From IMG/VR virus record IMGVR_UViG_3300043598_000004, positions 155-64,154 of that record: a stretch of DNA of 64,000 nucleotides; one strand, given 5' to 3'. A program made the position numbers and the translations under genes. Numbering within the stretch: position 1 is the first letter of the stretch; each line of letters starts with the position of its first letter. Shown in pieces: positions 11,011 through 63,549 of the stretch. A model generated the notes under the pieces. The model saw only the letters and a list, made by a program, of their open reading frames with translations, ran no database searches and was not told the DNA's origin. The DNA comes from a virus (lineage: Duplodnaviria > Caudoviricetes).

Positions 11011-11507
11011 CAAAACCTCACATCCTCACCACGTTCAGAGTCGTCGTTGAAACCGAAGGCGAAGTAAAAGACTTAGGGAAGTACATCGAAATTCGCATCC
11101 ACTCGCTTGAGAACAACGGAGGGCGCGTGGTCAATGCAACTGCCCTTGAAGTGGCGCGATCGGTCATGCCGCCCAAGATGACGCTTGCCGAGATCGCGAA
11201 GGCTGTCGAGCTTTACCACGGGCGCAAGGGCGCCAGCGATGTTGCTATCAAAACGATAGCACCCGAGCCAGTTGCCGTGCCGTGCGCCGAGGATGCTATC
11301 GAAACGATAGCAAAAACCTTCACAGGCTACCTGCAGACCGTAGGTCCGATCGTCGACGGGATTCAAACAGGCAACGGGCACGCCGTCGATGGCCAACCGA
11401 CGCTTGTGAACATGGATGCGATCAGCAAGATCATCGAGGAGGAAGAGGCGAACCCGCATCCCTTGCGCGGCACTGCAGCCGCCCCACTGCAGGAAGGCGA
11501 ACAGTAA
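11007..11507 (+). CDS. Hypothetical protein
   Basis: 166 aa ORF, overlaps both neighbours. Confidence 0.7.
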   Translation: MTKPHILTTFRVVVETEGEVKDLGKYIEIRIHSLENNGGRVVNATALEVARSVMPPKMTLAEIAKAVELYHGRKGASDVAIKTIAPEPVAVPCAEDAIETIAKTFTGYLQTVGPIVDGIQTGNGHAVDGQPTLVNMDAISKIIEEEEANPHPLRGTAAAPLQEGEQ

Positions 11508-12553
11508 TGGAAGCAAAGCTGTTCAAGAACTTCCATGTGATCGAGCACGCCCTGAACAGTGCAGTTAACCTGGACGAACTGCACAACTTCGAAGCCGTTG
11601 ATCCTACGGGCGGGTCGTGGCGCACGATGGGGTTCGTTCCTGTCGACGTGGACAACGAGTTGACTATGGATGTCCAGGGTGCAGCCCTCCTCGTGTGCGT
11701 CCAGGTCAATGAACGCATCCTGCCTGGTGCAGTGCTTCGAGAGAAGATGGTCGAGCGCATCGCGAGCATACAGGCCCGCGAGGGGCGCAAGCTCGGCAAG
11801 AAAGAGTACGCGCAGATCAGGGATGAAATTGAGTTCGAGCTTTTGCCCACGGCTTTCATTCGCAGAAAGCTGGTGCCAATCATGTTCACCAACAACAATC
11901 GCACGCTGATCTTCACAGCAAGCGCCAAGCTGTGCGATGACATCTTTGTGTTGCTGATGAGGGCCTGCCCTGGCTACGCTGAACTGAAACCGCAAGCGTT
12001 GGATTCCGTGGTCAAGAACAGCATCGCGGGGACGCTGACGACGTTGGCCAAGGACGGTCAAACCGACATGGTGGACGACGATGACAGGGCGACTGACTAC
12101 ATCGGCGTAGCCAACGCCGCTGTGCTCAAAGGCGACGGCAAGAAAACGATTCGCATCAAGGACAAGAACATCGCTGAGTCCGACATGCAAGCGTTGCTCA
12201 AGCAAGACTACACCGTGACAGCCTTGCGCCTGGACTTCTTCGAGGCCAACAGCATCGAGGATGAAGCAGCAACGTTCACGCTCAACGAGCACCTTGTCAT
12301 CAGTGCCCTGGTCCTCGCGAACATCGACGTGGGCAAAGAAAAAGGCAAGGCTGAAGAGTTCGACAAGTTCATGGCGACAGCGTGGGCTGTGGCGATCATC
12401 ACACATCAAATCATCGAGGCAATCATCCGCGTGATGGGAGGTTATCGAGATCCAAGCGAAGTCGATGCCGGCGACGAACTCATTGAAGAATCCATTGAAC
12501 TCGTGAAGTCCATGAAGCCGGTCACTGTCGACGACGACGACGACGAACTCTGA
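11507..12553 (+). CDS. rdgC: Recombination-associated protein RdgC, ends DDDDDEL
   Basis: FKN start, GFVP, ERILPGAV, EGRKLGKKE..QIRDEI..ELLPTAF signature. Confidence 0.9.
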   Translation: MEAKLFKNFHVIEHALNSAVNLDELHNFEAVDPTGGSWRTMGFVPVDVDNELTMDVQGAALLVCVQVNERILPGAVLREKMVERIASIQAREGRKLGKKEYAQIRDEIEFELLPTAFIRRKLVPIMFTNNNRTLIFTASAKLCDDIFVLLMRACPGYAELKPQALDSVVKNSIAGTLTTLAKDGQTDMVDDDDRATDYIGVANAAVLKGDGKKTIRIKDKNIAESDMQALLKQDYTVTALRLDFFEANSIEDEAATFTLNEHLVISALVLANIDVGKEKGKAEEFDKFMATAWAVAIITHQIIEAIIRVMGGYRDPSEVDAGDELIEESIELVKSMKPVTVDDDDDEL

Positions 12554-12840
12554 TGCGCATCCAAATCATTCCAGACGATGACGTTCCATCGCCGAAAGCA
12601 CGCGGCCGTGGTCGGCCCGTAGACGTGCACACGCAAGTGCAAGTCAATCAGTTCCTTGCAATGAAGATCGGGCAGAGCTTCTTTGTGCAGGACGCGAAGA
12701 GCCGCGATCTTGAGTACCTCCGCAGACCGATCAAAAAGGCCGGCGCAGGGATACGCATCATCGAAGTCAAACAGGATGAAATTTATGGCACCGCTGGCGT
12801 TCGATGCTGGCGCGAAGCCGGAGAGTACGACGAACTATGA
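12553..12840 (+). CDS. Small putative DNA-binding protein with AT-hook-like RGRGRP, ends EYDEL
   Basis: RGRGRP, MKIGQSFFV, GVRCWR motifs. Confidence 0.65.
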   Translation: MRIQIIPDDDVPSPKARGRGRPVDVHTQVQVNQFLAMKIGQSFFVQDAKSRDLEYLRRPIKKAGAGIRIIEVKQDEIYGTAGVRCWREAGEYDEL

Positions 12841-13265
12841 ACACACAAATCAAACCCCTGGCCTGGACCCCTTACGAGATCACTGCCGTCGAATGCAACA
12901 ACCGCATGGGCTTCGTTGGCCGTGCAGCTGCAATGTTTATCGACGGCATCGAAGTGATCATGACAACTCGCAATGACGTGGAACTGAAACGCATCGGTGC
13001 GTTCCTGACCATGGGGAACTTCGACGCTGAGACGATTTACAAGGCGACGGTGATCAACAGCGAAGGTATCCAGGTCGTCATCCCCGAAGTGACGATTCCA
13101 ACGCTTACTTCAGAAGTTGAGCCTGCCCCCGACGTGCCCCGCGAGATTCCTACTTTCCAAGGCAGGCCGATCGCGAAGTACGTCACACCGACAGCGGAGC
13201 CAGCGGCCAAGGCTGTCAATGAAAATACGCCAGTGCCTTCGACTGCCGATGACGACGAACTCTAG
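12837..13265 (+). CDS. Hypothetical protein with Pro/Thr-rich tail, ends DDDEL
   Basis: ATGA overlap. Confidence 0.75.
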   Translation: MNTQIKPLAWTPYEITAVECNNRMGFVGRAAAMFIDGIEVIMTTRNDVELKRIGAFLTMGNFDAETIYKATVINSEGIQVVIPEVTIPTLTSEVEPAPDVPREIPTFQGRPIAKYVTPTAEPAAKAVNENTPVPSTADDDEL

Positions 13266-13443
13266 CTCCGAGCCGCGCAGTGGTGCCCTGCGTTATCGCA
13301 ATGAAGAAGGCGAATGGATCGTGGCCAACCCTGGTGATGCCCTGTACTCAACCCTCAGCATGATTGGCACGGAGTACTACACCGCGCACGGATGGGAAGC
13401 GATCTATCTGCCTGACGACGGCGATGACGATGATGTCGAATGA
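13249..13443 (+). CDS. Small acidic protein, ends DDGDDDDVE
   Basis: ATG lies within the DDDEL codons of the upstream gene. Confidence 0.55.
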   Translation: MTTNSSSEPRSGALRYRNEEGEWIVANPGDALYSTLSMIGTEYYTAHGWEAIYLPDDGDDDDVE

Positions 13444-13551: not shown

Positions 13552-13845
13552 ATGATCCGAGTGGACATAACGCAAGGCAGGTTGGACAGTCGCAACCACG
13601 AGATTCTCATAGGCGAGATGATCGTGAAAGCGTTGAAGGTTTCCGGCATCCCTGCAGAGGGCGCCTTCACTGTTCAGGGTGTCGAGCGCGGGCAATTGAT
13701 CTACGAGCGTGGTGAAGGCGGCGTGCACATCTTTCGCTGGCGCGAGGACGCGGAGGACAGGGATACCAATTGGACCCGTGGTCCGGTGCATGAGAACGCA
13801 ACGATCTTCTACAGCGGACGACACGCTGAGGACGACGAACTGTGA
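13552..13845 (+). CDS. Hypothetical protein, ends EDDEL
   Basis: AAGGAG RBS. Confidence 0.75.
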   Translation: MIRVDITQGRLDSRNHEILIGEMIVKALKVSGIPAEGAFTVQGVERGQLIYERGEGGVHIFRWREDAEDRDTNWTRGPVHENATIFYSGRHAEDDEL

Positions 13846-16972: not shown

Positions 16973-17313
16973 ATAACAGTCCCACCCGGTCAGGCTTCAT
17001 GGTCCCATTCAACATGACAGGCATCCACACACGCGACACAGTGATCAAGCATCTCAACCATATCATTTTGTTGATGATGAAGGACAACGCTGAATACGTC
17101 AGTGGGGAGGGCGTCAGTACCGATCGAAGTGATCTCAACGAAAACACGGTGCGCGTCACTCTCAGCATCGATCTCGTGTTCGATCTTCACTACCCGGAGA
17201 AACGGCCCACGGTCACGGCAACCAAACCAGGCAAGGTCGCCAAGACCTATTCAAGCATGGGACCCGTGCCGCCTCCCATCACTGAGCCAAGCGAAAAGGG
17301 CTCAGGTAAATGA
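16969..17313 (+). CDS. Hypothetical protein
   Basis: ATGA overlaps. Confidence 0.65.
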   Translation: MNNSPTRSGFMVPFNMTGIHTRDTVIKHLNHIILLMMKDNAEYVSGEGVSTDRSDLNENTVRVTLSIDLVFDLHYPEKRPTVTATKPGKVAKTYSSMGPVPPPITEPSEKGSGK

Positions 17314-17930
17314 GCAACGACATCTCTATTGATTGCGAGACGCTCGGCAAGATGTTCGATGCGCCAGTAATCGCCATCGGTGCTCGCGCATTCGATCGCA
17401 TGACAGGCAAGCTCGGTGCCAAGTTCTACATCGAAATTGAACTGGCGAGTGCGATCAAGACAGGCCGCGTCGATGGCAGCACGATCGGATGGTGGATCAT
17501 GCAATCGCCACGAGCCAAGGTCATCTTCGATCCTGATCGCGAGTCGAAGAAGTCGAGCATGGCTACGGCACTGGTCGAGTTTTCTCATTGGTGCATCGGC
17601 CAGGGCAAAGACACCAACCAGCAATCAGGTGTCCTCCACGCGTGGAGCAACGGCGCCGCGCAAGACATCACCTGGCTTGAGCATGCCTACACCGTGGGCG
17701 GGCACGGCTTGACGATCCCGTGGCAGTACAACATGTCCAGGGACCTTCGCACCATCGAGAAAGCTGCCACCGACATCGCCGGCTTCGATCGCGCCACCGT
17801 CAAGCCTGTCGGTGTCGAGCACAACGCAGTGGACGATGCGACCTATCAAGCCAACATCATCATCGCTGCATACAAGGCACTGAGAGGTAGCAAAACTACA
17901 CCTGTTCCAACTGACGACGACGAACTCTGA
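17310..17930 (+). CDS. DEDDh 3'-5' exonuclease, ends DDDEL
   Basis: IDCETLG, WSNG..DI, RDLRT, HNAVDDA..QA motifs. Confidence 0.88.
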   Translation: MSNDISIDCETLGKMFDAPVIAIGARAFDRMTGKLGAKFYIEIELASAIKTGRVDGSTIGWWIMQSPRAKVIFDPDRESKKSSMATALVEFSHWCIGQGKDTNQQSGVLHAWSNGAAQDITWLEHAYTVGGHGLTIPWQYNMSRDLRTIEKAATDIAGFDRATVKPVGVEHNAVDDATYQANIIIAAYKALRGSKTTPVPTDDDEL

Positions 17931-17950: not shown

Positions 17951-18823
17951 ATGACCAATCAAACTCCCCTTTTCACTCCTCCCGAACTCGTGGGCGGCAA
18001 CGTCAAGACAGCGATGAAATCCGTGGGCGCATCGAGCGCTGACTTGTGGAAAGTCAAGCCTTCGGAAATCAAGTTCATGGACGGCTTCAATCTGCGGCAG
18101 CACAACACCGAGTACGAAGAGCACATCGAGTGGCTCACGTCTTCGATCATGCAGAACGGCTACTACCAGGACAAGCCGATCGCTGGCTACGTTGCCACAG
18201 ACGACGTGAATGGCCAAGTCATTTTCTGCACCGATGGCCACAGCCGCGTGACGGCAGCGCTCCGCGCCATCTCTAGGGGTGCGCCGATCGAAACCGTCCC
18301 GATGGTGATCAAGCCCAAGGGCACCACCATGGAGGACCTGACCTTCGCTCTCTTCACAAGCAACGAAGGCCGTCCGTTCTCGCCATTCGAGAAGGGCCTC
18401 GCGATCAAGCGGCTCATCGACATGGGTGTGGATGAAACCGTGATCGCCAAGCGACTCGGCATCACTGTGCCGTACGTCAACGATCTCCTGACAGCTGTCG
18501 GCGCCCCACGTGCTGTGCGCGAGATGATCGCCAGCGGCGCAGTGTCGGCAGCGACGGCCGTGGCTCAGATAAAGAAGCACGGGTCCAAAGCGACTGAAAA
18601 GCTCCAGGAGGCTGCGAAGGTGGCCAAGGCATCCGGGAAGACCAAGGTAACGGCAAAGCATCTCCTGAAGCCTTCTACGCTGAAGCTGACGGGTCAGATA
18701 CGGGCGGACGCCAGCGAAGGCGCGAGCCGCATCTCTATATCCCTGGACTTGGGGCTCGAAGTCATGCTGAAGGCCGGCAGCAAGGTCCGCCTGGTGATCA
18801 CCGACGTGGAGGACGAATTGTGA
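17951..18823 (+). CDS. ParB/Srx N-terminal domain protein with HTH, ends EDEL
   Basis: GFNLR, DGHSR, SNEGRPFSPFE, IAKRLG. Confidence 0.82.
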   Translation: MTNQTPLFTPPELVGGNVKTAMKSVGASSADLWKVKPSEIKFMDGFNLRQHNTEYEEHIEWLTSSIMQNGYYQDKPIAGYVATDDVNGQVIFCTDGHSRVTAALRAISRGAPIETVPMVIKPKGTTMEDLTFALFTSNEGRPFSPFEKGLAIKRLIDMGVDETVIAKRLGITVPYVNDLLTAVGAPRAVREMIASGAVSAATAVAQIKKHGSKATEKLQEAAKVAKASGKTKVTAKHLLKPSTLKLTGQIRADASEGASRISISLDLGLEVMLKAGSKVRLVITDVEDEL

Positions 18824-18981: not shown

Positions 18982-19175
18982 GTCGTCGAACACCTGAATG
19001 GCATGCGGCCCGTGAAGCAGAGGTACAACGTCAACACGATCGTGATGAGGAGCGCTTGCGCGAGCGACGTGAAGTGATCTCCCTGGCGATCCTCGAAGCA
19101 GCTGCAGAGACTGGCTACAGCCCAAGTGACAAGCTGGTCGAGTTTCTTTCCAACTTGCTTGAGAGGGTGACGTGA
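18978..19175 (+). CDS. Hypothetical protein
   Basis: 65 aa ORF. Confidence 0.65.
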   Translation: MSRRTPEWHAAREAEVQRQHDRDEERLRERREVISLAILEAAAETGYSPSDKLVEFLSNLLERVT

Positions 19176-19507
19176 TGCCGCTCGACACCCGTGCCCAAGG
19201 CATAGCGCTCCTACGTGACGATGCCAGGGCCAAGGCCCGCGTCAACGTGCACAAGGCGCACATGGAACTGCTTCGAGCTACCAAAGGCTTGCTCGATGAC
19301 TTCAGGATGCAGTTCAACCCGCCAGGGGTCCGCTACTGGGAAAGCTATTCCGATGAGACACCGCCACGGCGGGCCTACTACACCACGTTGCTTCGATCGG
19401 ATGACGACACGAAGCTACCCGACAACTACACCATTGCCGAACTGAGCCATGTCGAGTACCTCTCACGGCAAGGCATGGGTGACACCTACGATGAGGATGA
19501 ATTGTGA
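19172..19507 (+). CDS. Hypothetical protein, ends DEDEL
   Basis: 111 aa ORF. Confidence 0.7.
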   Translation: MMPLDTRAQGIALLRDDARAKARVNVHKAHMELLRATKGLLDDFRMQFNPPGVRYWESYSDETPPRRAYYTTLLRSDDDTKLPDNYTIAELSHVEYLSRQGMGDTYDEDEL

Positions 19508-20062: not shown

Positions 20063-20066
20063 CGTG

Positions 20067-20744: not shown

Positions 20745-20972
20745 ATGCCCAACATGACCGTCGGCGACATCAGCAAAAAGATTGGTTTCATCGTTACCCG
20801 CAAGGACATCGAAGCGCTCGGCATCACGGCCGCAGAGCACGTCAAGGGTTATCCTAAGTTCTCGCCGGCAGCTTTTCCCGCGATCTGCCGGGGCTTCATC
20901 ACGAAGCTGGAAGCATTGGAGGCGGGTTACGTACCTGCCGAGGAGCCCGATGATGATGACGACGAACTTTGA
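20745..20972 (+). CDS. Small protein, ends DDDDDEL
   Basis: CAGGAG RBS. Confidence 0.8.
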   Translation: MPNMTVGDISKKIGFIVTRKDIEALGITAAEHVKGYPKFSPAAFPAICRGFITKLEALEAGYVPAEEPDDDDDEL

Positions 20973-45247: not shown

Positions 45248-45568
45248 TTACAGGTCGGCAGCGCTGGTCTTGGCGGCAGGCTTCGGCGTGACGTTGCCCT
45301 TCTCGGCAGCTGCGTCGGCCTTGGCCTTCTCGTCCTTGGCCTTCTCTGCAGCGGCAACGGCCTTGGCCTTTTCTTCCTCTTCGGTTGCTGCAGCTTGCTG
45401 CGCGAGCAACTTGTCTTCGATGACGATCTTGCGCAACGAGTTCGGTGACGAAGCCTCGATGTCCTTCAGTTCGTCGGCAGTGAAATCGAATTCCGTTCCG
45501 ATCTGCAGACGCTTTTGCTTGCCGTCGCGTTGAATGATGACGGACTTGACTGGGATGCGCTTGGGCAT
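45248..45568 (-). CDS. Small protein after capsid gene (lambda FI position), ends AADL
   Basis: Ala/Lys/Glu-rich C-terminus; function inferred from position only. Confidence 0.55.
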   Translation of the reverse strand: MPKRIPVKSVIIQRDGKQKRLQIGTEFDFTADELKDIEASSPNSLRKIVIEDKLLAQQAAATEEEEKAKAVAAAEKAKDEKAKADAAAEKGNVTPKPAAKTSAADL

Positions 45569-45621
45569 GATTGAATCTCCGGTGAAGTGAACGATAAGCC
45601 GCCGCAGCGGCCCGCAAAGAA

Positions 45622-50071: not shown

Positions 50072-50072
50072 C

Positions 50073-50285
50073 TCAGAAAATGAATCGAGCTGGACCTGAA
50101 GGAATACCCGTTGCGCAGCCCAGTTCGGCTTCAAGCGCCTGGATATATCCGTAGAGGTTTTGCTTGTTGGCTGCGGCGTATTCAACGCGGGAACCATTCT
50201 GATCGACCACCACGCGGGGCATGCCGCCCGTGTGCAATTGATGGTATGCGACACGCGCTTGCGCGAGCATCTCTGCCTTGGTCAT
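50073..50285 (-). CDS. Head-tail joining protein (gpW family)
   Basis: AYHQL.TG...VVDQNGSRVEY...L..YI..LE. Confidence 0.85.
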   Translation of the reverse strand: MTKAEMLAQARVAYHQLHTGGMPRVVVDQNGSRVEYAAANKQNLYGYIQALEAELGCATGIPSGPARFIF

Positions 50286-52373: not shown

Positions 52374-52944
52374 CGATCACAACAATCGGCTCCGATATTT
52401 TCTCGGTTGGAGGCTTCACTTGGAACTTCTCTTCGAGCCGTTTCAGCATGTTGACCTTTGCCCCTTTAACCAATTGCTTGATCACGTCACGTTGACGATC
52501 GGTAAGCTCCGTTGCCCGCTCGACACCATCGGTCAACAGGTCCAATTCCATCTTTAGAGACTTCACCATCTCACCCACTTGCTCGATGACCTTGGTCGTC
52601 GGCCACAAGTCGCCGGCCCGTAGTTCGAACTCCTGACGACTTCGCTGGCCTGCCCAGTATTCTTTGCTCAGTTGCTTCGGCAGTTGGTCATGATTCATCG
52701 TCATCATGGCCTTGCGCACTTGCTCTTCGCTGAGCTTGCCCATCTTCTCGGCGACGGCAGCGATCTCATAGATCGATGCGCCGTGACGCGTCCCCACGGG
52801 CTCGATGCCATACATGCGTTGCTTCAGCGTGCGATGGTCCGCCCTGAACAAAACACCTAGCTCTGAAAGGTTTGCGCCCTGGAAAAGAATTGCGCGACTT
52901 TCCGCATCCAGGTTGCGGCCCTCAGTTTTTAGCTTAGTTGCCAT
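52354..52944 (-). CDS. Terminase small subunit (DUF1441-like), ends DDDDEL
   Basis: Directly upstream of TerL; N-terminal HTH; LPKQLSKEYW...GDLW.T. Confidence 0.8.
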   Translation of the reverse strand: MATKLKTEGRNLDAESRAILFQGANLSELGVLFRADHRTLKQRMYGIEPVGTRHGASIYEIAAVAEKMGKLSEEQVRKAMMTMNHDQLPKQLSKEYWAGQRSRQEFELRAGDLWPTTKVIEQVGEMVKSLKMELDLLTDGVERATELTDRQRDVIKQLVKGAKVNMLKRLEEKFQVKPPTEKISEPIVVIDDDDEL

Positions 52945-53278: not shown

Positions 53279-54877
53279 TTACAACTCATCCGAGGTATCG
53301 ACTAACAATTTTTGCTTCCTATATGCAGCAATCAGCCTGCGTAATTTGGCGAACATCTTCGCTTGGGCGTCTTCCTTCCCCTTGATGGTCTTCGCAACAA
53401 GCTCATCCAGGGTGCCAACGGCCGTTAGCATATAAACAACAACCGGATGTTTTTGTCCCTGCCGAGCAATACGTCCGACCAATTGCATGAACCGTTCAAG
53501 CGAATGGAACAAATCAAACAACACCATGATGTGCCCGCCTAACTGCAGGTTCAGTCCGTGCCCGCCTGACTGGGGATGCATCAGCAACAGCGGAATCTTC
53601 CGCTTGTTCCACGCTGCCACGCACTTGCCTTCCTTGTCCATTACAACAGCCTGCGGGAACGCTTTCTTCAGCCGATCCAGCGACGATCGCCAGTGGTAGG
53701 CAACGATGATCGGCTCCCCTTGCGCCTCTTCGATCAACTCTCGAAGCTCTTCGATTTTCTGATCATGTAAATGGTGAACCTTCTTCACCTTGCGCATGTC
53801 ATCCGTCTCGATGTCCTCTTCGAGATACGTCTCATAGAGCACACCCGAGGCCATTTGCAACAGCTTGGCTGAGAGAGCCGCAGCGGTCTTTGCTTCCACT
53901 TCGCTGCCATCGGGCAGGGTGACTATGAACTCACGCTGCATCTCCTCGTAGAGAGCCATCTCACGCTCGCCAAGTACTACCGGCCTGTGGATGATCGTCG
54001 GCTTTTCGCGAGGTAGGTACTGATCGGCTTTCATGACCAACGTAACGTCGGCAATCTTGGCCAGGATTTCATCATCAGCATCGGGACGTAGATCGTATTT
54101 GCGGGTGTACTTGTTTTTATTGAAGTACTTCAGGAAAAAGCGAGTGCTCGTTTCACCGAACCGCTTGCCACGATCCAGCAGAAACGTGATTGACCAAAAC
54201 GCCGTGTAGCCCTCAGCTGCAGGCGTGGCCGTCAAGGCATGCAGACGCGTGATGTAGCCCTCATACTTGCGCACCTTGGCCAGGGCCTTGAATCGCTCGC
54301 TTTGCCAGTCCTTGAAGCCGCTGGCTTCGTCAATGAAGACTGTCCGGTATGGCCACCTGTGCTGATGAAGCTCCACGAGCCACACAAGCCAATCGTTGCT
54401 CACAATGTGCACGGTCGCAGGATCACGGGCCTGGATAGCTCGAATGCGATTCTTCTCCTGCGTCTCAGCCCTGCCGCGAACGCCCTGCGCCTCCGCGCCG
54501 CTCATGCCATTCAATCGAGCTTCCGCAGCTGCAGCCTTGCCCGCCGCAATCACGCTCGGATGATCATCGGAAACGTTGATCAGCTGATGGTTCAAATGTG
54601 CGATGTGGGACCACTCGCGTTTCTCATTCGGCCACGTCTGCGTTGCGACCCGCTTCGGCCCGACGATGAGAATCTTGCCCTCGTGGTACTCGTCAATCAG
54701 GTCCGCGATGAGGGTCCAGCTGCAGATTGATTTGCCGAGCCCCATGTCCATCAGCAAGAGGCTGAAGGGGTTCTCTTTCAGGAACGGAATCGCGATATCG
54801 GTTTGATAGTCATGCAAGTCGGCTCGTGTGTGAATCACATCCGTGAACTTGGCACGGACCCATTGCATCAGACTCAT
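53279..54877 (-). CDS. SNF2-family helicase, ends SDEL
   Basis: DMGLGKS, IDEAS, LTATP, HPQSGGHGLNLQ, GRIARQGQ. Confidence 0.92.
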   Translation of the reverse strand: MSLMQWVRAKFTDVIHTRADLHDYQTDIAIPFLKENPFSLLLMDMGLGKSICSWTLIADLIDEYHEGKILIVGPKRVATQTWPNEKREWSHIAHLNHQLINVSDDHPSVIAAGKAAAAEARLNGMSGAEAQGVRGRAETQEKNRIRAIQARDPATVHIVSNDWLVWLVELHQHRWPYRTVFIDEASGFKDWQSERFKALAKVRKYEGYITRLHALTATPAAEGYTAFWSITFLLDRGKRFGETSTRFFLKYFNKNKYTRKYDLRPDADDEILAKIADVTLVMKADQYLPREKPTIIHRPVVLGEREMALYEEMQREFIVTLPDGSEVEAKTAAALSAKLLQMASGVLYETYLEEDIETDDMRKVKKVHHLHDQKIEELRELIEEAQGEPIIVAYHWRSSLDRLKKAFPQAVVMDKEGKCVAAWNKRKIPLLLMHPQSGGHGLNLQLGGHIMVLFDLFHSLERFMQLVGRIARQGQKHPVVVYMLTAVGTLDELVAKTIKGKEDAQAKMFAKLRRLIAAYRKQKLLVDTSDEL

Positions 54878-55173
54878 CGCATGTACGCCATGAACTCTTC
54901 CACGTTGTCAGTCCACTTCACGATAATGCCGTGCTCGCGCATTTCTCTATGCCTGGCCAATTGCTGCAGCGTTGGCTCCGAGCCTTTGCGCTTGAACTCC
55001 CAAAACACGATCACACCGCTTCGAGCAAAGAAGCGATCGGGCCATCCACGGGATGTTTGACTCACGAGCTTTTGGCATAACCATCCGCGCTTCTCGGCGA
55101 ACTCGACGCAAGGCAACTCGACATCGGGAATCTCAAGCTCAACACGTTCGTACAGCAAGGCAGCTTTCCTCAT
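54874..55173 (-). CDS. VRR-NUC domain nuclease
   Basis: GWPDRFF...WEFKR....PT.QQ. Confidence 0.88.
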   Translation of the reverse strand: MRKAALLYERVELEIPDVELPCVEFAEKRGWLCQKLVSQTSRGWPDRFFARSGVIVFWEFKRKGSEPTLQQLARHREMREHGIIVKWTDNVEEFMAYMR

Positions 55174-57263
55174 AGTTCTTCGTCCTTTCGACACTTGGCG
55201 CAATATCTCGCGTCTTCAGGTTTCGAAGCGAACTCTACCCACATGTCGCGGCGTTGCTTCCGCTTCATCCCACATCGAGCGATGCCAGTGCTGGCGTCGA
55301 CACGGTGAACTGTTTTCTGATCCTCTAGGCGTCCGTAGAACATCCCTGTGCGTCCGATGAGCGAAGGGTCCGGTGACTCCATGCCAACGTCGTCCAGGAT
55401 CGCGTACGCCTCACGCTCGTACCACTCGTAGTCGATGTTGCGGGGCAACTCATCAGGCAGGCGCATGCACGGCTGCGCCCCCTTGCTGCGGGGCACTTTG
55501 TTGCCGGTTTCTTTGTACGTCAGTGTCCCGTGCACGTCATCGGCGTAGTAATAGCGCGGCACCTTGGCCACCAACTCGCCTTCGAACATCGCGCCGCCCT
55601 TGACCTTGCGAACGCTCACGAATTTGCGAATGTCCTGGCACTCGCGAATCGTCGACTCCACCGGCGTGCCGTCCTTCAGGAAAGCAATCACAGCGTCATA
55701 ACAAATCTCAACCATCGGCGTTTTCTTGAGCCCGAATGCTGCAGGGATGCCGCGACCTGACGGAGCAAACAACCCCTTGCGCTTGGCTTCGAGTCCGCCG
55801 TTGCCATCGTGCTTGAACGCCACGTAGTTATTCACGTTCTGTGCATGCAGCGATCGATACCGAACTTCCTCAGTGATCAGTCCTGTCTCATTTTCCCAGT
55901 CGAAGACCACGCAACAGAACATCCCGTATTCGGCGCGAGGAACGCGGGTAACGAAGCCATCGGTGTTCGCACTGATGACTTCCCAACCGTGCAGCACCAC
56001 GTCTTCGATCAGCATCAGGATATCCAGTTGGCCGCTGACGGTTGTCTGAATCATCATCGGCGGCGAGTAGACAATCGAAAAAGGCGAGCCAGTCTTACCA
56101 AATATTCCATTGGTCGCGATCTTTCCTGACTCGGCTTCATCCTTGCGACCGGCGATCTTCGCTGCATCACGTTCGTCCTTGATACGCGTGTACTCAACCG
56201 TGAAGTGCCCGCGCATGTTGGCAGGCTCGCGCCCACTCGTGATGATCAGACTCGGGTAGTAGCCACGCACATCACGATCGACAATGATGTACTCATCGTC
56301 CTCGTAGACACTGACGCTCTTCTCTTGAGAATGCAGTCCACCGATGCCCATCTTGTAGACGTTGTTCCCAAGATGAATCTCGGCGCCGCCTTCGAGATGC
56401 TCCTCATCCGTCTCTTCGTCCTTCTTCTTCGCACCGAAGATTTCCGGCAGTTGCACGTAGCCATCACGCTTGACAATGAACGGTGCTCGAAGCAAGCGGC
56501 TCAACATCTCCTGCATCGCAGGCGTCTGGAATTTGATGTATGCCGGCGCCTCGAAGTGGAACGCACCCGGTTGGATGTCCGGCTTGTAGATGCGCTTGCC
56601 GCCCATGCGCTTCTCGACGCGAGCCCGCATGATCGCTTCACCGATCTGTGCATCCGACTTGCTGCGGCAGTCCACGCCGATCCTGGCACTGATCTTTGCT
56701 CGAATGGCCACCTGAGGCTGCAACTCGGTCGCGAGGTCGTCGGTCACTTCGAGGTCGTTGTCCAGATAGGCAAGAACCTCTTCGATTTCATCGTCTTCGA
56801 GCCACGTGTCAGGGGTGTACGGCAACTCCTGCATGTGTCGCGAGTGCATCATGCCGGCGTACTTCTTCAGGCTCGCACGCTGCGCAGCTGAAGGTGCTAC
56901 TTCCATCAGGTCGATGTGATCGATCCAGTCGGGCACGCGGATGTTGTACGAGTCATAGAACTCCCAATACTTCATCCCGCCGATGATGATTCGGTCGTTG
57001 GCTGTCTTCAACTCCTCGCACGTCGCGCCCTGCATCGCGAGCATGATCATCGGCAAGTCGTAGTTGATGCCGTTGAAGGTATAGAAGCGGTGATAGCGCA
57101 GGATCGTCGAGATGCGCGGCCGATCAAGCTCTTCACCCACGCGCATAGCGACCTTGACGACCTTGCGAGTCTCTAGAGATCGAAACCCGATAGCCCACAG
57201 GTTCCGGTAGCACTCCGAATCACAAACCGCCTGAGGCCGCGTGGCTAGATAGTCGATTGGCAT
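55170..57263 (-). CDS. DNA polymerase, family B-like, with 3'-5' exonuclease; ends DEEL
   Basis: DSECY, FNGINYD, DVRGYYPS, KIATNGIFGK, SANTDG. Confidence 0.88.
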   Translation of the reverse strand: MPIDYLATRPQAVCDSECYRNLWAIGFRSLETRKVVKVAMRVGEELDRPRISTILRYHRFYTFNGINYDLPMIMLAMQGATCEELKTANDRIIIGGMKYWEFYDSYNIRVPDWIDHIDLMEVAPSAAQRASLKKYAGMMHSRHMQELPYTPDTWLEDDEIEEVLAYLDNDLEVTDDLATELQPQVAIRAKISARIGVDCRSKSDAQIGEAIMRARVEKRMGGKRIYKPDIQPGAFHFEAPAYIKFQTPAMQEMLSRLLRAPFIVKRDGYVQLPEIFGAKKKDEETDEEHLEGGAEIHLGNNVYKMGIGGLHSQEKSVSVYEDDEYIIVDRDVRGYYPSLIITSGREPANMRGHFTVEYTRIKDERDAAKIAGRKDEAESGKIATNGIFGKTGSPFSIVYSPPMMIQTTVSGQLDILMLIEDVVLHGWEVISANTDGFVTRVPRAEYGMFCCVVFDWENETGLITEEVRYRSLHAQNVNNYVAFKHDGNGGLEAKRKGLFAPSGRGIPAAFGLKKTPMVEICYDAVIAFLKDGTPVESTIRECQDIRKFVSVRKVKGGAMFEGELVAKVPRYYYADDVHGTLTYKETGNKVPRSKGAQPCMRLPDELPRNIDYEWYEREAYAILDDVGMESPDPSLIGRTGMFYGRLEDQKTVHRVDASTGIARCGMKRKQRRDMWVEFASKPEDARYCAKCRKDEEL

Positions 57264-57339: not shown

Positions 57340-58011
57340 TTACATTTCGTCGTCGTCGTCGATGCCGTTCGATGCACCTTCGGTTTCAGGCAGGTTGTCC
57401 CATGCGTCGCTGTCGTCCACGGTGCCGCCGCCAAACGCCTTGTCGTCCTTCCAATGGATCACCGACACCATGCCGGCGCTCACGCGCTTGGGATAGGTCT
57501 TGGTCTTGCCCTTCACGTTGCCGTCGAAGAACCACGGACGCACCAGGACGTGCCCCCAACATCCCGAGAAAAACACGCGGTCGATCTCGGCAGATTCCAC
57601 CAGGATTTCACCGCGGCCGTTGCGGGCCTTCGGTCGATTCTTTTGCTCGCGCATGGAGATAAGCCAGTGGCCCGCCGCGATCTCGTCTTTCTTCCCGGTC
57701 TTTTGGATGATCTTTTGGTCACCGTCCGACATGCACCACTTGTCCATGGGCACCTGGAATTTGTTCTTGGCGCAAATCGCCTGAATGCATTCCTTCATCG
57801 CGTTCTTGGCCGCAAGGTGCGTTGCCTTGGGCAGCATGGCCGTCAATTGCCACGAGTAGGTTTTCTCGCCGGCTTCATTCGTTTCCTCTCGTTTCTCGCC
57901 AAGGTTGGCAAAGCTGAATCGCACCTTGTCGATGCGAAGCACGGGATTGCCCTCGCGATCGTTGAAGATGACGAAGTGTTCACCGCGTTTGATTTCAGTC
58001 AGGTCGGACAT
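57340..58011 (-). CDS. ssDNA-binding protein (DUF2815, T7 gp2.5-like), ends DDDDEM
   Basis: VRFSFA.L, DGD, FFSGCW, FGGG plus acidic tail; between nuclease and polymerase. Confidence 0.82.
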   Translation of the reverse strand: MSDLTEIKRGEHFVIFNDREGNPVLRIDKVRFSFANLGEKREETNEAGEKTYSWQLTAMLPKATHLAAKNAMKECIQAICAKNKFQVPMDKWCMSDGDQKIIQKTGKKDEIAAGHWLISMREQKNRPKARNGRGEILVESAEIDRVFFSGCWGHVLVRPWFFDGNVKGKTKTYPKRVSAGMVSVIHWKDDKAFGGGTVDDSDAWDNLPETEGASNGIDDDDEM

Positions 58012-58038: not shown

Positions 58039-59355
58039 TTAAAGGTCATCGGTTTCACAGTTTTCATCGAGCAAGTCCGCAAAGGCGATCTCACTCACAT
58101 CCACGATGGCGGGGCGCCGATCAGACGCATCCACCAACGTCGCCTTCCCCGGTGGCTTGTAGACCAACGGTTTCAGGATCTTCTCGATATCCGCAGCTGC
58201 GTGAACACCGTGCTTGCGCAACAGGCGTTCAACTTCAGCGGGACTCTCGATTGTTTCTTTCACAAGCTCCTCACGCTCGATGCCGTACGCGTCAAGCGCT
58301 TTAACGGCACGCTCAATATGGGTGAACTGTCTATGTGTTCGGCCCTCCACGAGCTTCTTTCCAGGCACAACTATTCCGTTGATGGCTCGCCGTGTCAATT
58401 CGTTGTGCAGCGCCTTCCACCAGCGCTCCACCATGGGCCTGAACTTCAGCATGAAAGCCATGTTCTCGACGCTGATGCGGTGCGGCTCCATGTACTTCGT
58501 GAAGATGCCGTCGTCCAGGCGTTGCTTCAGCGCTTCTTCCCGCTCCGGTGCGATCGGTTGGAACAGGTCTGCGAACGCCGCAGTAACGATGTCCTCTTGC
58601 ATTTGGATGTTCGCAGCGCAATCGGTCTTCACGCGGCAGAACAGGCATTGCTTCGACCCTGCGGTGCGTGGCGCATCGAGGCGCCAGGCCAAGTGCGCTC
58701 GCACCCTCGCGTACTCAGCCCATTCCAGTAGGAACTCACGCGTGATCGTCCACGTCTCGAAGATATCCATTCGAGGCTGAACGATGCGGATGTTGATCTC
58801 CTGGAAGTCGTAGAGCCAATCGAACTCATAGAAAAACCCAAGCGCATAGAGAAGCGCCTGAGTGTTGTTCTCGGCATGCACGGCATGACCCTTGCCGTAC
58901 TTGAAATCGGTGATCGTCAGCTTTTGCCACGAGCATGCAGCATGGTCCGCCGTGCCGCCCTGGTTGGGTATCGGCGTGATCGCGTCGTAGTAGACCTTCG
59001 TCTCGATGTAATGCTCACCGGGTATCCAGTCGCACGCATCGACGTACATCTGACAGTAGTCGAGCATCGTGTCAGTGATCTCGATGACGTGCCATTCGTC
59101 GCCGTTCTTGACGCGTTGCCTCGTGCCCACCAGTTGCTTCGGTTTCTTGTCGGTGCGCAGCCAGAGTTCGCAGACGCCATGGGCCACGGTGCCCTCAGCG
59201 GCATCAACCCCTGAATCATCTTTCGCGAGTATGTTCGCGATGAGTCCGCCTGAACAATTCAGCCACAGCGGCGAGCCCGATGCCGAGAAGATGCTGTGAG
59301 CACCATTCTTCAGCGACTCCGCAAGGGCAGAAAGGTTCAGACGGTGCTCGGTCAT
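58039..59355 (-). CDS. DUF2800 Cas4-like PD-(D/E)xK nuclease, ends TDDL
   Basis: HSIFSASG..W..C, EGTVAH, GTAD, DFKYGKG, NTQ..LYALG, C.FC. Confidence 0.88.
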   Translation of the reverse strand: MTEHRLNLSALAESLKNGAHSIFSASGSPLWLNCSGGLIANILAKDDSGVDAAEGTVAHGVCELWLRTDKKPKQLVGTRQRVKNGDEWHVIEITDTMLDYCQMYVDACDWIPGEHYIETKVYYDAITPIPNQGGTADHAACSWQKLTITDFKYGKGHAVHAENNTQALLYALGFFYEFDWLYDFQEINIRIVQPRMDIFETWTITREFLLEWAEYARVRAHLAWRLDAPRTAGSKQCLFCRVKTDCAANIQMQEDIVTAAFADLFQPIAPEREEALKQRLDDGIFTKYMEPHRISVENMAFMLKFRPMVERWWKALHNELTRRAINGIVVPGKKLVEGRTHRQFTHIERAVKALDAYGIEREELVKETIESPAEVERLLRKHGVHAAADIEKILKPLVYKPPGKATLVDASDRRPAIVDVSEIAFADLLDENCETDDL

Positions 59356-60014
59356 TACATGTCGCTGTCGCCGCCGCCGTTGCCCGCTTCGGCTTCGGTG
59401 ATCGCCGCTTCGAGGGCAGCGCACAACGCGTCGATGTTCGCGTCCGCGACTTCCTTCAGTTTCGCCGCCTTACCTGTTGCCGCGATGATGGCCTGCGTCT
59501 TTTCCTTGCCGCCGTTCGCGTCGCCGATCGTCTCGCGGTACTTGACGGCCAAGGCTGACATCTCCTCGCGGGTCCTGGTCGGCTTGACCACGGTCGCCGC
59601 AGGTTTGACTGCCGCCGTGGTTGTCTTCGTTGCTGCAGCACCAGCGGGCTTGCCGCCACCTAACAGGAGTGCTGCGGTGTTGGCTTCGACGGCCTTTGTC
59701 AGCGCCAGGACGCTATCTTCTAGAGACATTTGATTTTCCTTATCGGCCGGGTTTTGATCAGGTCGCCCGATGGCCAGTCGGTCGACCTGTTTGATTCGTT
59801 CCTTGAGGTTCTCAAGGAACCACTCCTGTTCGCTCTCATCGAGTTCAGCAAACATGCGTTTGATGCGATCGGCAACGTTGTGATGACCTTCGTAGTGAGC
59901 CTTAGCCAGGTTGAACGTGCTGATGAGCCCTTCACGCTGCCAACGACTATCACAGGCCGCGATGCGCTTTTGCAGCGCCTTCGCCTGCGGCGTTTCCTCG
60001 AAGGACTTCATCAA
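59355..60014 (-). CDS. Ala-rich hypothetical protein (probable internal start 59729), ends DSDM
   Basis: AAGGA RBS before MSLEDSVLAL; upstream 95 codons in frame. Confidence 0.7.
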   Translation of the reverse strand: MMKSFEETPQAKALQKRIAACDSRWQREGLISTFNLAKAHYEGHHNVADRIKRMFAELDESEQEWFLENLKERIKQVDRLAIGRPDQNPADKENQMSLEDSVLALTKAVEANTAALLLGGGKPAGAAATKTTTAAVKPAATVVKPTRTREEMSALAVKYRETIGDANGGKEKTQAIIAATGKAAKLKEVADANIDALCAALEAAITEAEAGNGGGDSDM

Positions 60015-60694: not shown

Positions 60695-60733
60695 CCCGAG
60701 CTATCAACCCCTCCCACACCACAAGGACAAGCC

Positions 60734-61018
60734 ATGATATTCCCGCGATGGGTCAACAAACCCGGTACAACAAAGCAAGAGAAAGCTTCTAACCGGTTGC
60801 GATATCTGATCCTGCGCCTCGCGATCGACCTGGACAAGGATGCCACGTTGATGAAGGTCGCGGAGAAGGTGGGATTCTCCCACTCATACATCAGTTTTCA
60901 TATCACCAAGGGGTACTTTTCTGCATCCCTGGCCACGGCTTTCGAAGATACCTTCGGTCGCGAGCTTTGTCCTAACGAGTGGTTGCGTAATCCGCTCCTC
61001 ATACCAGTCACGAAGTGA
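60734..61018 (+). CDS. Cro/Xre-like HTH regulator
   Basis: LMKVAEKVGFSHSYIS; upstream of primase. Confidence 0.68.
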   Translation: MIFPRWVNKPGTTKQEKASNRLRYLILRLAIDLDKDATLMKVAEKVGFSHSYISFHITKGYFSASLATAFEDTFGRELCPNEWLRNPLLIPVTK

Positions 61019-63549
61019 CGACACGTCCGAATTCATCGGACGAATCCAAGCGTATCGACTTCCTGGCACTCCACGGTGCCAAGTTGCTCGACAACGGCTA
61101 TAGCATCGTACCGATCAGGCAGGGCGGCAAATCCCCCGACTTCGAGGGATGGGCGAAGGCGAAAGCCTCCAAGGAACAGTTGCGTGAGTGGCTCGACGGC
61201 GGGCACCGCAATGCAGGCGTGGGTATCCTGACCAAATACACCCCGGCCGTAGACCTTGATATCCGCGACCCCGACGTTGCGGCCCTCATGGTGACCTACG
61301 TGAAGGAGAAAATGGGCGGCACGCTCATGCGCATCGGGCAAGCTCCCAAAGCGCTCTTCTTCTTCAGAACGGATGTCCCCTTCAGGAAACGCCGAACCAC
61401 CGAACGCGAGGACGACTGGGGCTTGAAAAACCAGATCGAGGTCCTTGGTGAAGGTCAGCAAGCGGTGGCCTACCACCGGCATCCAGAGACGGGCAGGCCC
61501 TACACCTGGCCCGACTACGAAGAGAACCCCCTCGAAGTACGCCAGGCCGATCTCCCGACGATCACGCAAGAGATGATCGATGGGCTCTTTGCCTACTTCG
61601 AGGAGGTTTGCGACGGGCTCGGATGGGATATCAAGAAAGCTGCCAGGGGTAGTGCCAAGGCGATCAACCAGGACAACCCGTTTCTGGAAGACACCACGCC
61701 GGTCGACATGCCCGATGGTGAAATCTTCAACCAGCTGATGCTCGTTCCCGGCGCCGACGACTATGACGTGTGGTCGCAAATCGGCATGTGCCTCTATCAC
61801 CAGTGGGACGGTGCCGAGATCGGCAAGCAGTATTGGCACGAGTGGTCGGAGACGGCCGACAACTACGACCGGGAGGCTCTAGAAGACAAATGGAACAGCT
61901 TTTCCATCGATGGCAAGCTCCGGGCGCCAATCACCGTCCGATCGATCCTGAAATGGGCCGCTGAGGCTGTAGAGCGCACACGGCTCGAAGAGGGCAATCG
62001 TCTGCGCACCATGTTCGCAGCGGCACACGACATGGCGTCGTGGGACAAGGCACGAAAGGAAACTCAACATGCTGAAATCGACACCATCACGCGAGACGGC
62101 CTTGCTGCGATCGCGAAGGAAAGGCGGGACGCGATTACTGGTATCCGATCTTCGATCCAGACCATCCGTAAAGCGCTTGCTTTTGTCTATATCGCTCCGA
62201 AGGGTGACAAGATTCCGGGATGGGTTCGGCCCTACGTCTACGACATAAGCGACGATCGGTTCTTCGACACGGAAAGGAAGTACTCGGCGACCAAGCAAGG
62301 CTTCGATGCGATGCACGATCGCGAGGCGATGACGAAGAAGGACATCGTTGACGGTCGGAGTTCGCCATCGGATAACGCTTCCACGCTGGCGCTCAACTTC
62401 TTCAGGATCAGGGCAGTCCAGGGGCGACGCTACGAGCCAGGGCAGGACGAAATCTTCACGAACCTCGAAGGTACGTTCGCCAACAGCTACACCGAAAAGG
62501 AAATCCCGGCACTGCCCGAGCATCGGATACCAAGGGATGTCAAGAACGTCCAGAGGGTGAAGGATCACATCGCCCACTTGCTACCGCACGAGCACGAGCA
62601 ACGCATGTTCATTGACTGGCTCTCGTGGGTTGTTCAGAACCCCGGCAAGCACATGAACTATGCGATCCTGCTTCAAGGGGTCGAAGGTGACGGGAAGAGC
62701 TTCTTCGGGTCATTGATGCAGGCTGTAATGGGCATCTCCAACGTGACCATGTTGAACGCCCACATCTTCGAGTCAGACTTCACGGATTGGACAGTCGGTC
62801 AATGCCTGTCATGCGTCGAAGAGGTTCGCTTGATCAAGGTACACAACAAGTACGAAGTCTTGAACCGCATCAAACCCTTCGTCACCAACGACACCATCGA
62901 GGTACACCCCAAGGGAAAGCCAATTCACAATGCCAAGAACACCACGAGCTATCTACTGTTCTCGAATCACAAGGACGCCTTGCCATTGGATGATGATGGC
63001 CGGCGCTACCTGGTGCTTTTCAGCCAATGGCAAAGGCGGGTCGAGATTCGTGCCTTCAAGGATGCACACCCCCGCTATTACACCTTGCTGTATCAAACCT
63101 TCATCGAGTCACCGGGTGCCTTGCGTCAATGGTTGCTTGATCACCAGCAAGCGGCCAACTTCGATCCGACCGGCGATGCTCCTCAAACCAAGGCTCGCAA
63201 ATTCATGATTCGCCAAGCGAAGCCTGAGTTCATTCAGGAGTTGGATCAGGTGATCAGGGAAGACGAAACGCTATGCGCCTCAGAAGAGTTGGTCGACGTG
63301 ACTGCGCTTGCTGAAGTGTTCATGGCCAGGGGCTTTGATTGGCCGGCGCCGAAGACGCTTGGAACAATGATGACCAGGGATGGATATGAGGAGTTAGGAA
63401 AGGTAATGATCAATGGAACTCGTGACAGTTACTACTCCAAAAGCCCCCATTTGTTCCGCAAAACCTCTGGTGATGACGACGTGACAAATGCCTCGTTAAT
63501 ACGCGAATATTTAAGCGAACGTTCTGCCAAGATTGACGATGACCTTTAG
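61015..63549 (+). CDS. Primase-helicase (Prim-Pol, PriCT-2, SF3/DUF5906 ATPase), ends DDDL
   Basis: GYSIVPI, AVDLD, AYHRHP.TG.PY.W; DYDVW..IGM.L; GVEGDGKS, VEE, FSN, RRY. Confidence 0.9.
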   Translation: MTTRPNSSDESKRIDFLALHGAKLLDNGYSIVPIRQGGKSPDFEGWAKAKASKEQLREWLDGGHRNAGVGILTKYTPAVDLDIRDPDVAALMVTYVKEKMGGTLMRIGQAPKALFFFRTDVPFRKRRTTEREDDWGLKNQIEVLGEGQQAVAYHRHPETGRPYTWPDYEENPLEVRQADLPTITQEMIDGLFAYFEEVCDGLGWDIKKAARGSAKAINQDNPFLEDTTPVDMPDGEIFNQLMLVPGADDYDVWSQIGMCLYHQWDGAEIGKQYWHEWSETADNYDREALEDKWNSFSIDGKLRAPITVRSILKWAAEAVERTRLEEGNRLRTMFAAAHDMASWDKARKETQHAEIDTITRDGLAAIAKERRDAITGIRSSIQTIRKALAFVYIAPKGDKIPGWVRPYVYDISDDRFFDTERKYSATKQGFDAMHDREAMTKKDIVDGRSSPSDNASTLALNFFRIRAVQGRRYEPGQDEIFTNLEGTFANSYTEKEIPALPEHRIPRDVKNVQRVKDHIAHLLPHEHEQRMFIDWLSWVVQNPGKHMNYAILLQGVEGDGKSFFGSLMQAVMGISNVTMLNAHIFESDFTDWTVGQCLSCVEEVRLIKVHNKYEVLNRIKPFVTNDTIEVHPKGKPIHNAKNTTSYLLFSNHKDALPLDDDGRRYLVLFSQWQRRVEIRAFKDAHPRYYTLLYQTFIESPGALRQWLLDHQQAANFDPTGDAPQTKARKFMIRQAKPEFIQELDQVIREDETLCASEELVDVTALAEVFMARGFDWPAPKTLGTMMTRDGYEELGKVMINGTRDSYYSKSPHLFRKTSGDDDVTNASLIREYLSERSAKIDDDL

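Follow-up and report, generated by a model that had tools for sequence, protein, structure and literature searches.

We describe here a short C-terminal tail, an acidic run closed by a single hydrophobic residue, that is shared by unrelated proteins of a phage genome in the IMG/VR record IMGVR_UViG_3300043598_000004. The DNA that we analyzed (the window, 64,000 nucleotides) covers bases 155 to 64154 of this 64154-base record, which CheckV rates as 100% complete. About one protein in six of the window carries the tail, and in related phages its last residue follows the genome. A shared tail with a last residue of the lineage's own suggests one docking site at which the phage's DNA-handling proteins would come together.

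Genes were called with a simple codon-usage caller of our own, which gave 83 genes at a training cutoff of 300 amino acids and 86 genes at 250. Its start codons are unreliable; a C terminus is set by the stop codon alone, so this uncertainty is irrelevant to the tail counts. The initial annotation, made from the sequence alone, had listed 11 proteins ending in Asp-Glu-Leu (DEL) and estimated a chance expectation far below 1. All 11 ends were confirmed among the 83 called proteins, eight of them on the plus strand (stops at 12553, 12840, 13265, 13845, 17930, 18823, 19507, and 20972) and three on the minus strand (the portal protein at 48455-50254, the small terminase TerS at 52354-52944, and an SNF2-family helicase at 53279-54877). 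The expected number, 0.02 to 0.05, was 0.025 from composition and 0.048 from the rate of internal DEL (11 in 19066 positions); 5000 shuffled controls gave a mean of 0.02 and a maximum of 2. At position -4 of the 11 ends stood D in seven, E in two, and Y and S in one each. When the motif was broadened to [DE][DE][LIVMF], which brings in the ends of the DNA polymerase (KDEEL), the protein that binds single-stranded DNA (SSB; DDDDEM), the DUF2800 protein (ETDDL), and the primase (IDDDL), it closed 15 proteins versus 0.34 to 0.47 expected, with a shuffle maximum of 4. The count was still 15 when Y or W was also allowed as the last residue ([DE][DE][LIVMFYW]). Among 477 non-gene open reading frames (ORFs) of at least 40 amino acids, none ended in DEL and two in the broad motif. 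The enrichment is genuine and very unlikely to have arisen by chance.

Over the set of 86 genes, the tail was found on none of 21 in the left cluster, 8 of 21 between 11282 and 21600, none of 31 in the lysis, tail, and head regions, and 7 of 13 between 48455 and 64000. All those carriers to which a function could be assigned work on DNA, and these data support a restriction of the tail, within the window, to DNA-handling proteins.

Does the signal reside in the protein or in the DNA that encodes it? The 14 tails that end in leucine use five leucine codons (CTT in 4, CTC, CTA, and TTG in 3 each, and CTG in 1), and all three stop codons are used. Seven of the 14 have no overlapping downstream gene; an overlap is present in 27 of the 70 other genes, which argues that the tail is independent of translational coupling. 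The varied codons and stops, together with the half of the tails that lack a downstream overlap, place the signal in the protein, and the tail behaved neither as a repeated DNA element nor as a translational-coupling junction. The tail is a short linear motif at the protein level, and these observations support its selection as protein. The initial annotation had likewise argued for protein-level selection and not a DNA repeat, and the loss of the motif wherever no downstream gene overlaps, which it had named as a sign to the contrary, is not what we found. A by-product at the nucleotide level, arising at gene ends from translational coupling, from the Shine-Dalgarno site of the next gene, or from repeated DNA, is almost certainly not the explanation. 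It would account for the three CTA leucine codons, all of which form CTATGA with an overlapping ATG, and perhaps for the mild overuse of GAC and GAA in the tails (72% and 71%, versus 56% and 51% genome-wide), but no GGAG Shine-Dalgarno site can be written with GAY, GAR, and YTN, the codons of the tail, and the amino acid pattern is kept across genomes while the last residue changes class.

One pair of ends does have such an origin. Two ORFs ending in EVEEL (8264-8650 and 8647-9111), which the initial annotation had counted among the variants of the tail, are adjacent and unrelated except for their identical last 10 residues (..IAPASEVEEL) and stop. These ends are encoded by a 36-nucleotide direct repeat (94% identical; window positions 8618-8653 and 9079-9114) that contains a Shine-Dalgarno site, GGAGGAG, and an overlapping start, CTATGA. 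The pair is thus a DNA-level gene-junction repeat and was dropped from the carriers. It resembles a gene junction that has been duplicated, possibly as the trace of an inserted gene; neither ORF was picked by the gene caller, and the gene content between 8.0 and 9.6 kb is uncertain. The other variants of that list, the ends of the polymerase, SSB, DUF2800 protein, and primase as well as two degenerate ends (DSDM and AADL), are present.

Megablast of two 10-kb stretches of the window found no near-identical GenBank phage, and protein-level searches were therefore used instead. The window polymerase is 47.5% identical (tblastn) to the annotated DNA polymerase of Burkholderia phage AH2 (Casjensviridae), and the large terminase TerL is 50 to 59% identical to TerL of Chi and of Aeromonas, Providencia, Proteus, and other chi-like siphophages. 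A related TerL was found in 348 GenBank records. Orthogroups of the window are common to 23 other genomes, and both the homology and the order of the Casjensviridae core genes (replication genes, TerS, TerL, W, portal, protease, decorator, and capsid) are found in it. On these matches the window is a complete new chi-like (Casjensviridae-type) siphophage, the label denoting a type and not a formal taxonomic assignment. For the family comparison we used 24 genomes: the window, 22 whole related records, and AH2. Named phages other than AH2 and T7 were represented by one 50-kb stretch per record, and the counts given for them are lower bounds.

The tail was found on 179 of 1797 called proteins and in 22 of the 24 whole genomes, with 15 carriers in the window and 3 to 13 in the relatives that have it. 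Over these 179 tails, acidic residues (D or E) occupied position -5 in 58% and position -4 in 78%, and positions -3 and -2 in 100% by definition of the motif. The last residue was L in 49%, V in 25%, I in 15%, F in 5%, and M in 3%. Read across these C termini, the motif is not DEL as such, as had been proposed, but an acidic run plus one hydrophobic residue, which is L, V, I, F, or M across the family.

The choice among these residues is made genome by genome. Two tails from the same genome shared their last residue with a pair identity of 0.716, whereas the value within orthogroups was 0.301; when residues were shuffled 5000 times, the within-genome identity was 0.322 and never exceeded 0.402. 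It is the genome that the last residue follows, and not the protein family. On a TerL tree of 23 genomes, the genomes that use V form one clade, and the class of the last residue changes approximately seven times. Genomes G009 (L) and G017 (F) are sisters on this tree (95% support in the Shimodaira-Hasegawa-like approximate likelihood ratio test, SH-aLRT) and differ, L versus F, in all four orthogroups with the strict motif (DUF2800, primase, RdgC, and exonuclease); their TerS proteins end in LEEL versus EAEF. Tails that were newly gained follow the local residue, as in the portal (DDEL, in the window) and DUF7609 (DDEV, in the V clade only). Relatives of the phrog_7200 protein end in YDEL or YDDL in L-class genomes and in DNDF in an F-class genome. 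Shared descent inflates the shuffle statistic, and the sister contrasts and new gains are the stronger argument.

How widely the tail is spread within each orthogroup was expressed as genomes with the tail over genomes with the gene, in the 24 whole genomes. It is carried by RdgC in 18 of 21, by a 133-amino-acid phrog_7721 protein in 18 of 20, by SSB in 17 of 23, by TerS in 13 of 21, by Dam methylase in 11 of 13, and by primase in 11 of 24. The DUF2800 protein has it in 10 of 24 (the others end in ..WDDE or ..IWDD), SNF2 in 7 of 24 (the others in ..VWDDEE or ..WDDEDD), the window-type polymerase in 3 of the 9 genomes having that type, and the Rv2179c-like exonuclease in 3 of 8 (DDEL, DDEL, and DDDF). 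A PAPS-reductase-like protein and DUF7609 are further carriers in relatives. The initial annotation had stated that every carrier of recognizable function acts on DNA and that no capsid or tail protein has the tail. This holds in the window, where the portal is among the carriers, and needs correction for the relatives, in which a DUF7443 protein of the head gene cluster bears the full tail in 13 of 16 genomes. Among whole-genome orthologues of the portal, the tail is present in 1 of 22, that of the window; among 75 portal matches it is present in three (loci L062, L005, and L056), and the portal of Xanthomonas phage FoX4 ends in ..EDEDEL. The large terminase has the tail in none of its whole-genome orthologues. 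The C terminus of TerL (50295-52373, minus strand, in the window) is itself conserved, ending in ..LA in 17 of 23 genomes (..ALA in 12) and in ..LG in 4.

Scanning IMG/VR with the portal yielded 80 loci, many of which had acidic, hydrophobic-ended C termini on several genes; no tails were seen at its loci with only ∼30% portal identity. Named relatives with the tail were Chi (10 of 63 ORFs; 9 V and 1 I), Klebsiella phage KPN N98 (6 of 57, all V), the Aeromonas phages phiWae15 (11 of 60, all L), AVP3 (12 of 56, 10 of them L), and BUCT551 (9 of 55, all I), Achromobacter phage AXY1 (8 of 54; 7 L and 1 M), and FoX4 (5 of 59; 4 L and 1 M, the portal included). Outside the Casjensviridae, the strict pattern was found on 0 of 43 proteins in T7 and 1 of 56 in Pseudomonas phage NP1.

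A second recurrent end was observed in the family, in which two to four acidic residues come after a tryptophan (..AWDDE, ..IWDD, ..VWDDEE, ..WDDEDD, and ..VWGDD), in the DUF2800, SNF2, and primase orthogroups of genomes G001 to G004, G013 to G016, G018 to G020, and G022. The Dam methylases end in ..WDE[IVL]. In phiWae15 (LC778250.1), a gene annotated as an RNA-directed DNA polymerase (L165:35397-36404) lies directly past the large tail genes and may belong to a diversity-generating retroelement.

In the window, the plus-strand carriers begin with an RdgC-family protein (11282-12553; ..DDDDDEL; PF04381, E = 8.6e-30), whose start is that of the longest ORF and possibly lies later. It is followed by a 95-amino-acid phrog_7200 protein (12553-12840; ..EYDEL), a 153-amino-acid protein of uncertain start and with no gene overlapping its stop (12804-13265; ..ADDDEL), and a 97-amino-acid phrog_31589 protein (13552-13845; ..AEDDEL). 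Further along are a 3'-5' exonuclease of the Rv2179c-like type (17310-17930; ..TDDDEL; PF16473, E = 6e-40), a ParB-HTH/KorB-like DNA-binding protein (17951-18823; ..VEDEL; PF17762), a 111-amino-acid protein (19172-19507; ..YDEDEL), and a 75-amino-acid protein (20745-20972; ..DDDDDEL) with the top coding score per codon among the small genes. Searches of Pfam and PHROG gave no match for the proteins at 12804-13265 and 19172-19507. The sole relative found of the ParB-like protein is a 324-amino-acid protein in the record of phage AH2, which ends in ..DPADDL. The primase-helicase (61015-63549; ..KIDDDL), with Prim-Pol, PriCT-2, and DUF5906 matches in Pfam, is also on the plus strand.

The minus-strand carriers are the portal protein of the lambda family, an unusual carrier (48455-50254; ..NQDDEL; PF05136, E = 6.9e-86); TerS, a DUF1441 protein (52354-52944; ..DDDDEL; PF07278); the SNF2-family helicase (53279-54877; ..DTSDEL; PF00176 and PF00271); the DNA polymerase of the type shared with AH2 (55170-57263; ..RKDEEL), for which no Pfam or PDB sequence match was found; the T7-gp2.5/Enc34-type SSB, which we regard as the prototype carrier (57340-58011; ..IDDDDEM; PF10991; PDB 5odj, E = 1.2e-18); and the DUF2800 protein, annotated as a Cas4-like exonuclease in relatives (58039-59424; ..CETDDL; PF10926, E = 8e-76). 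Pfam confirmed the functions named earlier for RdgC, the exonuclease, ParB-HTH, portal, TerS, SNF2, SSB, DUF2800, and primase. The two degenerate variants, also on the minus strand, belong to a 219-amino-acid weak relative of phrog_7721 (59355-60014; ..GGDSDM; E = 2.6e-4) and to the DUF7443 protein directly downstream of the major capsid gene (45248-45568; ..TSAADL; PF24227). Positions 1 to 4000 have a GC content of 0.48 versus 0.55 to 0.58 elsewhere in the genome and hold minus-strand genes, none with a tail; this part may be a recently acquired accessory block.

On balance, and with moderate confidence, we favor the reading that an acidic docking tail of the SSB type has spread to most of the DNA-handling proteins and is read by one coevolving receptor, most likely encoded by the phage. 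We read the tail as an SSB-type docking device because the window SSB is of the gp2.5 class and because of the tails of T7 gp2.5 and gp4. In the window, the flexible tail consists of two to six D or E residues followed by L or M with its free carboxylate. In this scheme, it would have passed from the T7-gp2.5-type SSB to most proteins that handle phage DNA: in replication, the polymerase, the primase-helicase, and the SNF2 helicase; in recombination, RdgC and two exonucleases; the ParB-like protein; in packaging, TerS and the portal; and five small proteins. One putative receptor would read all of these tails through a pocket for the last side chain and its carboxylate, with a basic surface alongside. 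It is the concerted, lineage-specific change of the last residue that argues for a single receptor with such a pocket. Since Aeromonas phages use L or I, and sister phages L or F, this receptor most likely travels with the phage and would coevolve with its lineage. By analogy with T7, in which such tails dock on the polymerase, a core part of the replisome would be the likeliest candidate. The probable function would be to bring DNA enzymes together where phage DNA is replicated and packaged and to allow them to be handed over there. The initial annotation had inferred a common address read by one hub; a common reader is indeed the best explanation of the within-genome agreement (0.716, versus 0.301 within orthogroups), and no hub was identified.

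We searched for a receptor by covariation, screening 26 orthogroups present in at least 18 genomes column by column for positions at which the L and V clades have each fixed a residue of their own, the F genome has a change, and the two outlying L genomes agree. Five columns had all of these properties (primase 307, capsid 170 and 333, protease 47, and RdgC 582), and RdgC 582 is the last residue of a tail itself. With approximately seven class changes on the tree, the screen is without statistical power. When conserved orthogroups were ranked by net charge, the most basic were the tape measure protein and a 208-amino-acid protein of the head-tail block; both are implausible readers of replication proteins and were rejected as a basic hub. 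Co-folding of SSB residues 1 to 192 with TerS residues 120 to 196 (20-row alignments for each, controls absent) gave scores of 0.30, 0.33, and 0.25 (mark, 0.32), a result that weighs neither way on binding. Candidates for the receptor still include the primase-helicase, SNF2, VRR-NUC, and TerL.

Several observations weigh against a single phage-encoded reader. No receptor emerged from the covariation screen of the 26 orthogroups, which gave scattered columns only. The family has two polymerase types that do not cluster together, which speaks against the polymerase as the sole reader; one, family-A-like and ending in ..[FY][RK]KD, is found in 15 genomes, including the Chi-like ones, and the other, that of the window, in 9. 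The agreement of last residues is imperfect: tails of genome G004 are mixed (3 F, 3 I, 1 L, and 1 W), M, I, W, and L occur together in G014 and G022, I is a frequent end of the phrog_7721 protein within L-class genomes, and in G009 and G017 the SSB closes with I, unlike the remaining tails, which close with L or F. With only about seven class changes of the last residue among 23 genomes, part of the agreement within genomes is due to shared descent. In the crystal of the SSB of phage Enc34, a homologue of the window SSB, the last 11 residues are reported to be disordered, and the segment that occupies a groove lies upstream of the terminal motif (PMC5686142). Finally, no canonical tail was found in G025, in Klebsiella phage N133 (0 of 58), or in Ruegeria phage V16 (0 of 52), despite the same replication module.

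Genome G024 also had no canonical tail. Its SSB (L148:6522-7109) ends in ..DDFDD, its TerS (L148:14021-14662) in ..DEFDD, and its DUF2800 protein (record positions 5176-6456) in ..MDEFD; in these variants the hydrophobic residue sits inside the acidic end. Two proteins of phage V16 (L170:42417-43142 and 45289-45906) end in ..DDDLLG and ..DDDDILG. G024, G025, and N133 retain SSB, DUF2800, primase, SNF2, VRR-NUC, polymerase, and terminase, so that no gene, by its presence or absence, marks the system.

Other explanations would keep the tail as a protein signal but change its reader or dispense with one. The same docking motif could be read by a protein of the host, for instance a chaperone or a factor of replication or repair, the phage proteins joining a host hub or competing for it. 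We consider this unlikely, even though the covariation screen found no phage receptor and phages do put host-type tails on their own enzymes, as in the NP1 helicase, which ends in ..DLDDDIPF. The Aeromonas phages differ from one another, with L in phiWae15 and AVP3 and I in BUCT551, and the sister genomes G009 and G017 have L and F, respectively; concerted switches of this kind would not follow from a conserved host pocket unless the pocket varies among host strains. The NP1 gene, annotated as a DNA helicase (NC_031058.1, L169:36601-38487, minus strand), is the sole acidic-ended ORF among the 56 called in the 50-kb stretch. Its end is presumably the hexapeptide of the bacterial SSB C terminus (SSB-Ct), and the helicase seems, from this match, to carry the docking peptide of the host SSB. 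DDDIPF is named as the bacterial SSB tail motif in a published account (PMC5872125).

It is also improbable, in our judgment, that the tails have no shared reader at all and that each folds back as a DNA mimic onto the DNA-binding surface of its own protein, for autoinhibition or for discrimination between single-stranded and double-stranded DNA (ssDNA and dsDNA), having evolved repeatedly. All carriers with an assigned function act on DNA, and a 2008 paper in the Proceedings of the National Academy of Sciences (PNAS) reportedly holds, by its title, that the tail of T7 gp2.5 competes with ssDNA for a single binding surface. The Enc34 SSB is described as gaining dsDNA binding when its tail is removed (PMC5686142). 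Self-acting tails would leave unexplained, however, why unrelated proteins of a genome share one last residue and switch it in concert, and AlphaFold2 (AF2) leaves the SSB tail undocked on the core (predicted local distance difference test [pLDDT] falling from 66 to 44), although this is weak evidence. C-terminal residues also determine bacterial proteolysis, and a terminal tail that is modeled as disordered (AF2, SSB) could be a degron or a protease-protective cap that times the abundance of DNA enzymes; this is very improbable. The tail is present on the portals of the window and FoX4 and on the head-cluster DUF7443 protein of relatives, and the portal is a virion protein, which makes a degron tail unlikely. 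The signal of ssrA-type degrons is a nonpolar stretch of the last three to five positions, and no such end was found: the motif by its definition has D or E at positions -2 and -3, and 78% of the tails have one of the two at position -4 as well. Nor would a lineage-specific last residue be expected for a conserved host protease.

A stronger form of this reading, possible but doubtful, is a private, lineage-specific C-terminal address code with a single phage receptor that brings the proteins of replication, recombination, DNA modification, and packaging together in one DNA factory. Were it true, it would be the SSB interactome in reverse, with many ligands and one reader, and drift of the code between lineages could separate the machineries of coinfecting relatives. 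Should a single receptor exist, the network of protein interactions in an entire phage family, one that includes the model flagellotropic phage Chi, would be defined by a peptide of six residues, and replication and recombination would be physically tied to the terminase and portal. The five small carriers and the phrog_7721, DUF7443, and DUF7609 proteins would gain a working context, that of phage DNA transactions. The L, V, I, and F versions would be natural orthogonal peptide-receptor pairs.

The acidic tails of SSBs are textbook knowledge, and the window SSB has three features of such a docking tail: a run of D and E with a hydrophobic residue at the very end, its presence on the phage's own SSB, and a flexible tail on a variable linker. 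In the AF2 model, the mean pLDDT of 10-residue blocks was 83 to 98 up to residue 190 and fell to 66, 65, 55, and 44 over residues 191 to 223, and in an alignment of 20 SSBs the linker varied in length and sequence. Residues 193 to 205 of the window SSB include F193, G194, D199, W204, and D205 (..FGxGxVDxSDAWD..), near-invariant in these 20 SSBs, a motif that sits between the oligonucleotide-binding (OB) fold and the variable acidic linker. It appears, from the alignment with the Enc34 SSB, to correspond to the C-terminal segment of that protein that occupies a groove of its neighbor in the crystal.

The Enc34 ORF6 SSB (PDB 5odj, 5odk, and 5odl) is a homologue of the window SSB (E = 1.2e-18) and, like it, has an acidic tail. 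It is reported to be of the T7 gp2.5 structural class; acidic residues make up 16 of the final 29, and the cloning primer encodes ..WDEDEV (PMC5686142). In the crystal, an acidic C-terminal segment lies in a beta-sheet groove of neighboring molecules, and without the tail the protein is described as binding dsDNA as well as ssDNA (PMC5686142). In the passages of that paper drawn on here, the tail is treated as a feature of the SSB only, and a sharing with other phage proteins is not mentioned (PMC5686142). In the literature that we searched, which left subscription papers and supplementary files (for example, those of the Chi and Enc34 genome papers) outside its scope, we found no description of a tail common to many proteins of chi-like phages.

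Among eukaryotes, KDEL/HDEL retrieval, EEVD-TPR binding, and PDZ ligands all rely on a short C-terminal peptide with a free carboxylate that is read by one receptor on unrelated proteins. The likeness is one of logic only: bacteria have no endoplasmic reticulum, and none of the 11 DEL ends of this bacterial virus has K or H at position -4, as a retrieval signal would. Bacterial SSB-Ct, which is read through its free C terminus, is closer, being likewise an acidic run closed by hydrophobic residues. This tail (DDDIPF) is reported to organize many proteins of DNA metabolism (PMC5872125, PMC7913777). There, one ligand, SSB, serves many readers, whereas the window phage has the ligand on many proteins and, by implication, few readers; the bacterial end is I-P-F and that of chi-like phages D-E-L, D-E-V, or D-D-I.

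The nearest parallel is T7. In its record, gp2.5 ends in ..DEDGDF and gp4 in ..SNDTDF, both of the form D-x-D-F, so that two unrelated replisome proteins of one phage share an acidic stretch with a hydrophobic end, and the window SSB is of the same structural class. The gp2.5 tail is reported to interact with other replication proteins (PMC10359462, PMC5686142), and the acidic tails of gp4 to dock on two basic patches of the polymerase gp5 (PMC12593628). The remark of the initial annotation that it knew of no description of such a system stands for the shared tail and not for the principle: since the tails of gp2.5, gp4, and SSB were already known, the novelty is not one of kind. T7 has two carriers, in contrast to 15 in the window and 3 to 13 in its relatives; the chi-like carriers add TerS, portal, RdgC, exonucleases, Dam methylase, a PAPS-reductase-like protein, and small proteins; and T7 ends in Phe, whereas the last residue in the window is aliphatic and lineage specific. 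What is new is the scale, the types of carrier, the reversed polarity relative to bacterial SSB, and the lineage-specific last residue. If our preferred reading is right, the principle of T7 gp2.5 and gp4 would be extended from two proteins to a code on the scale of a proteome.

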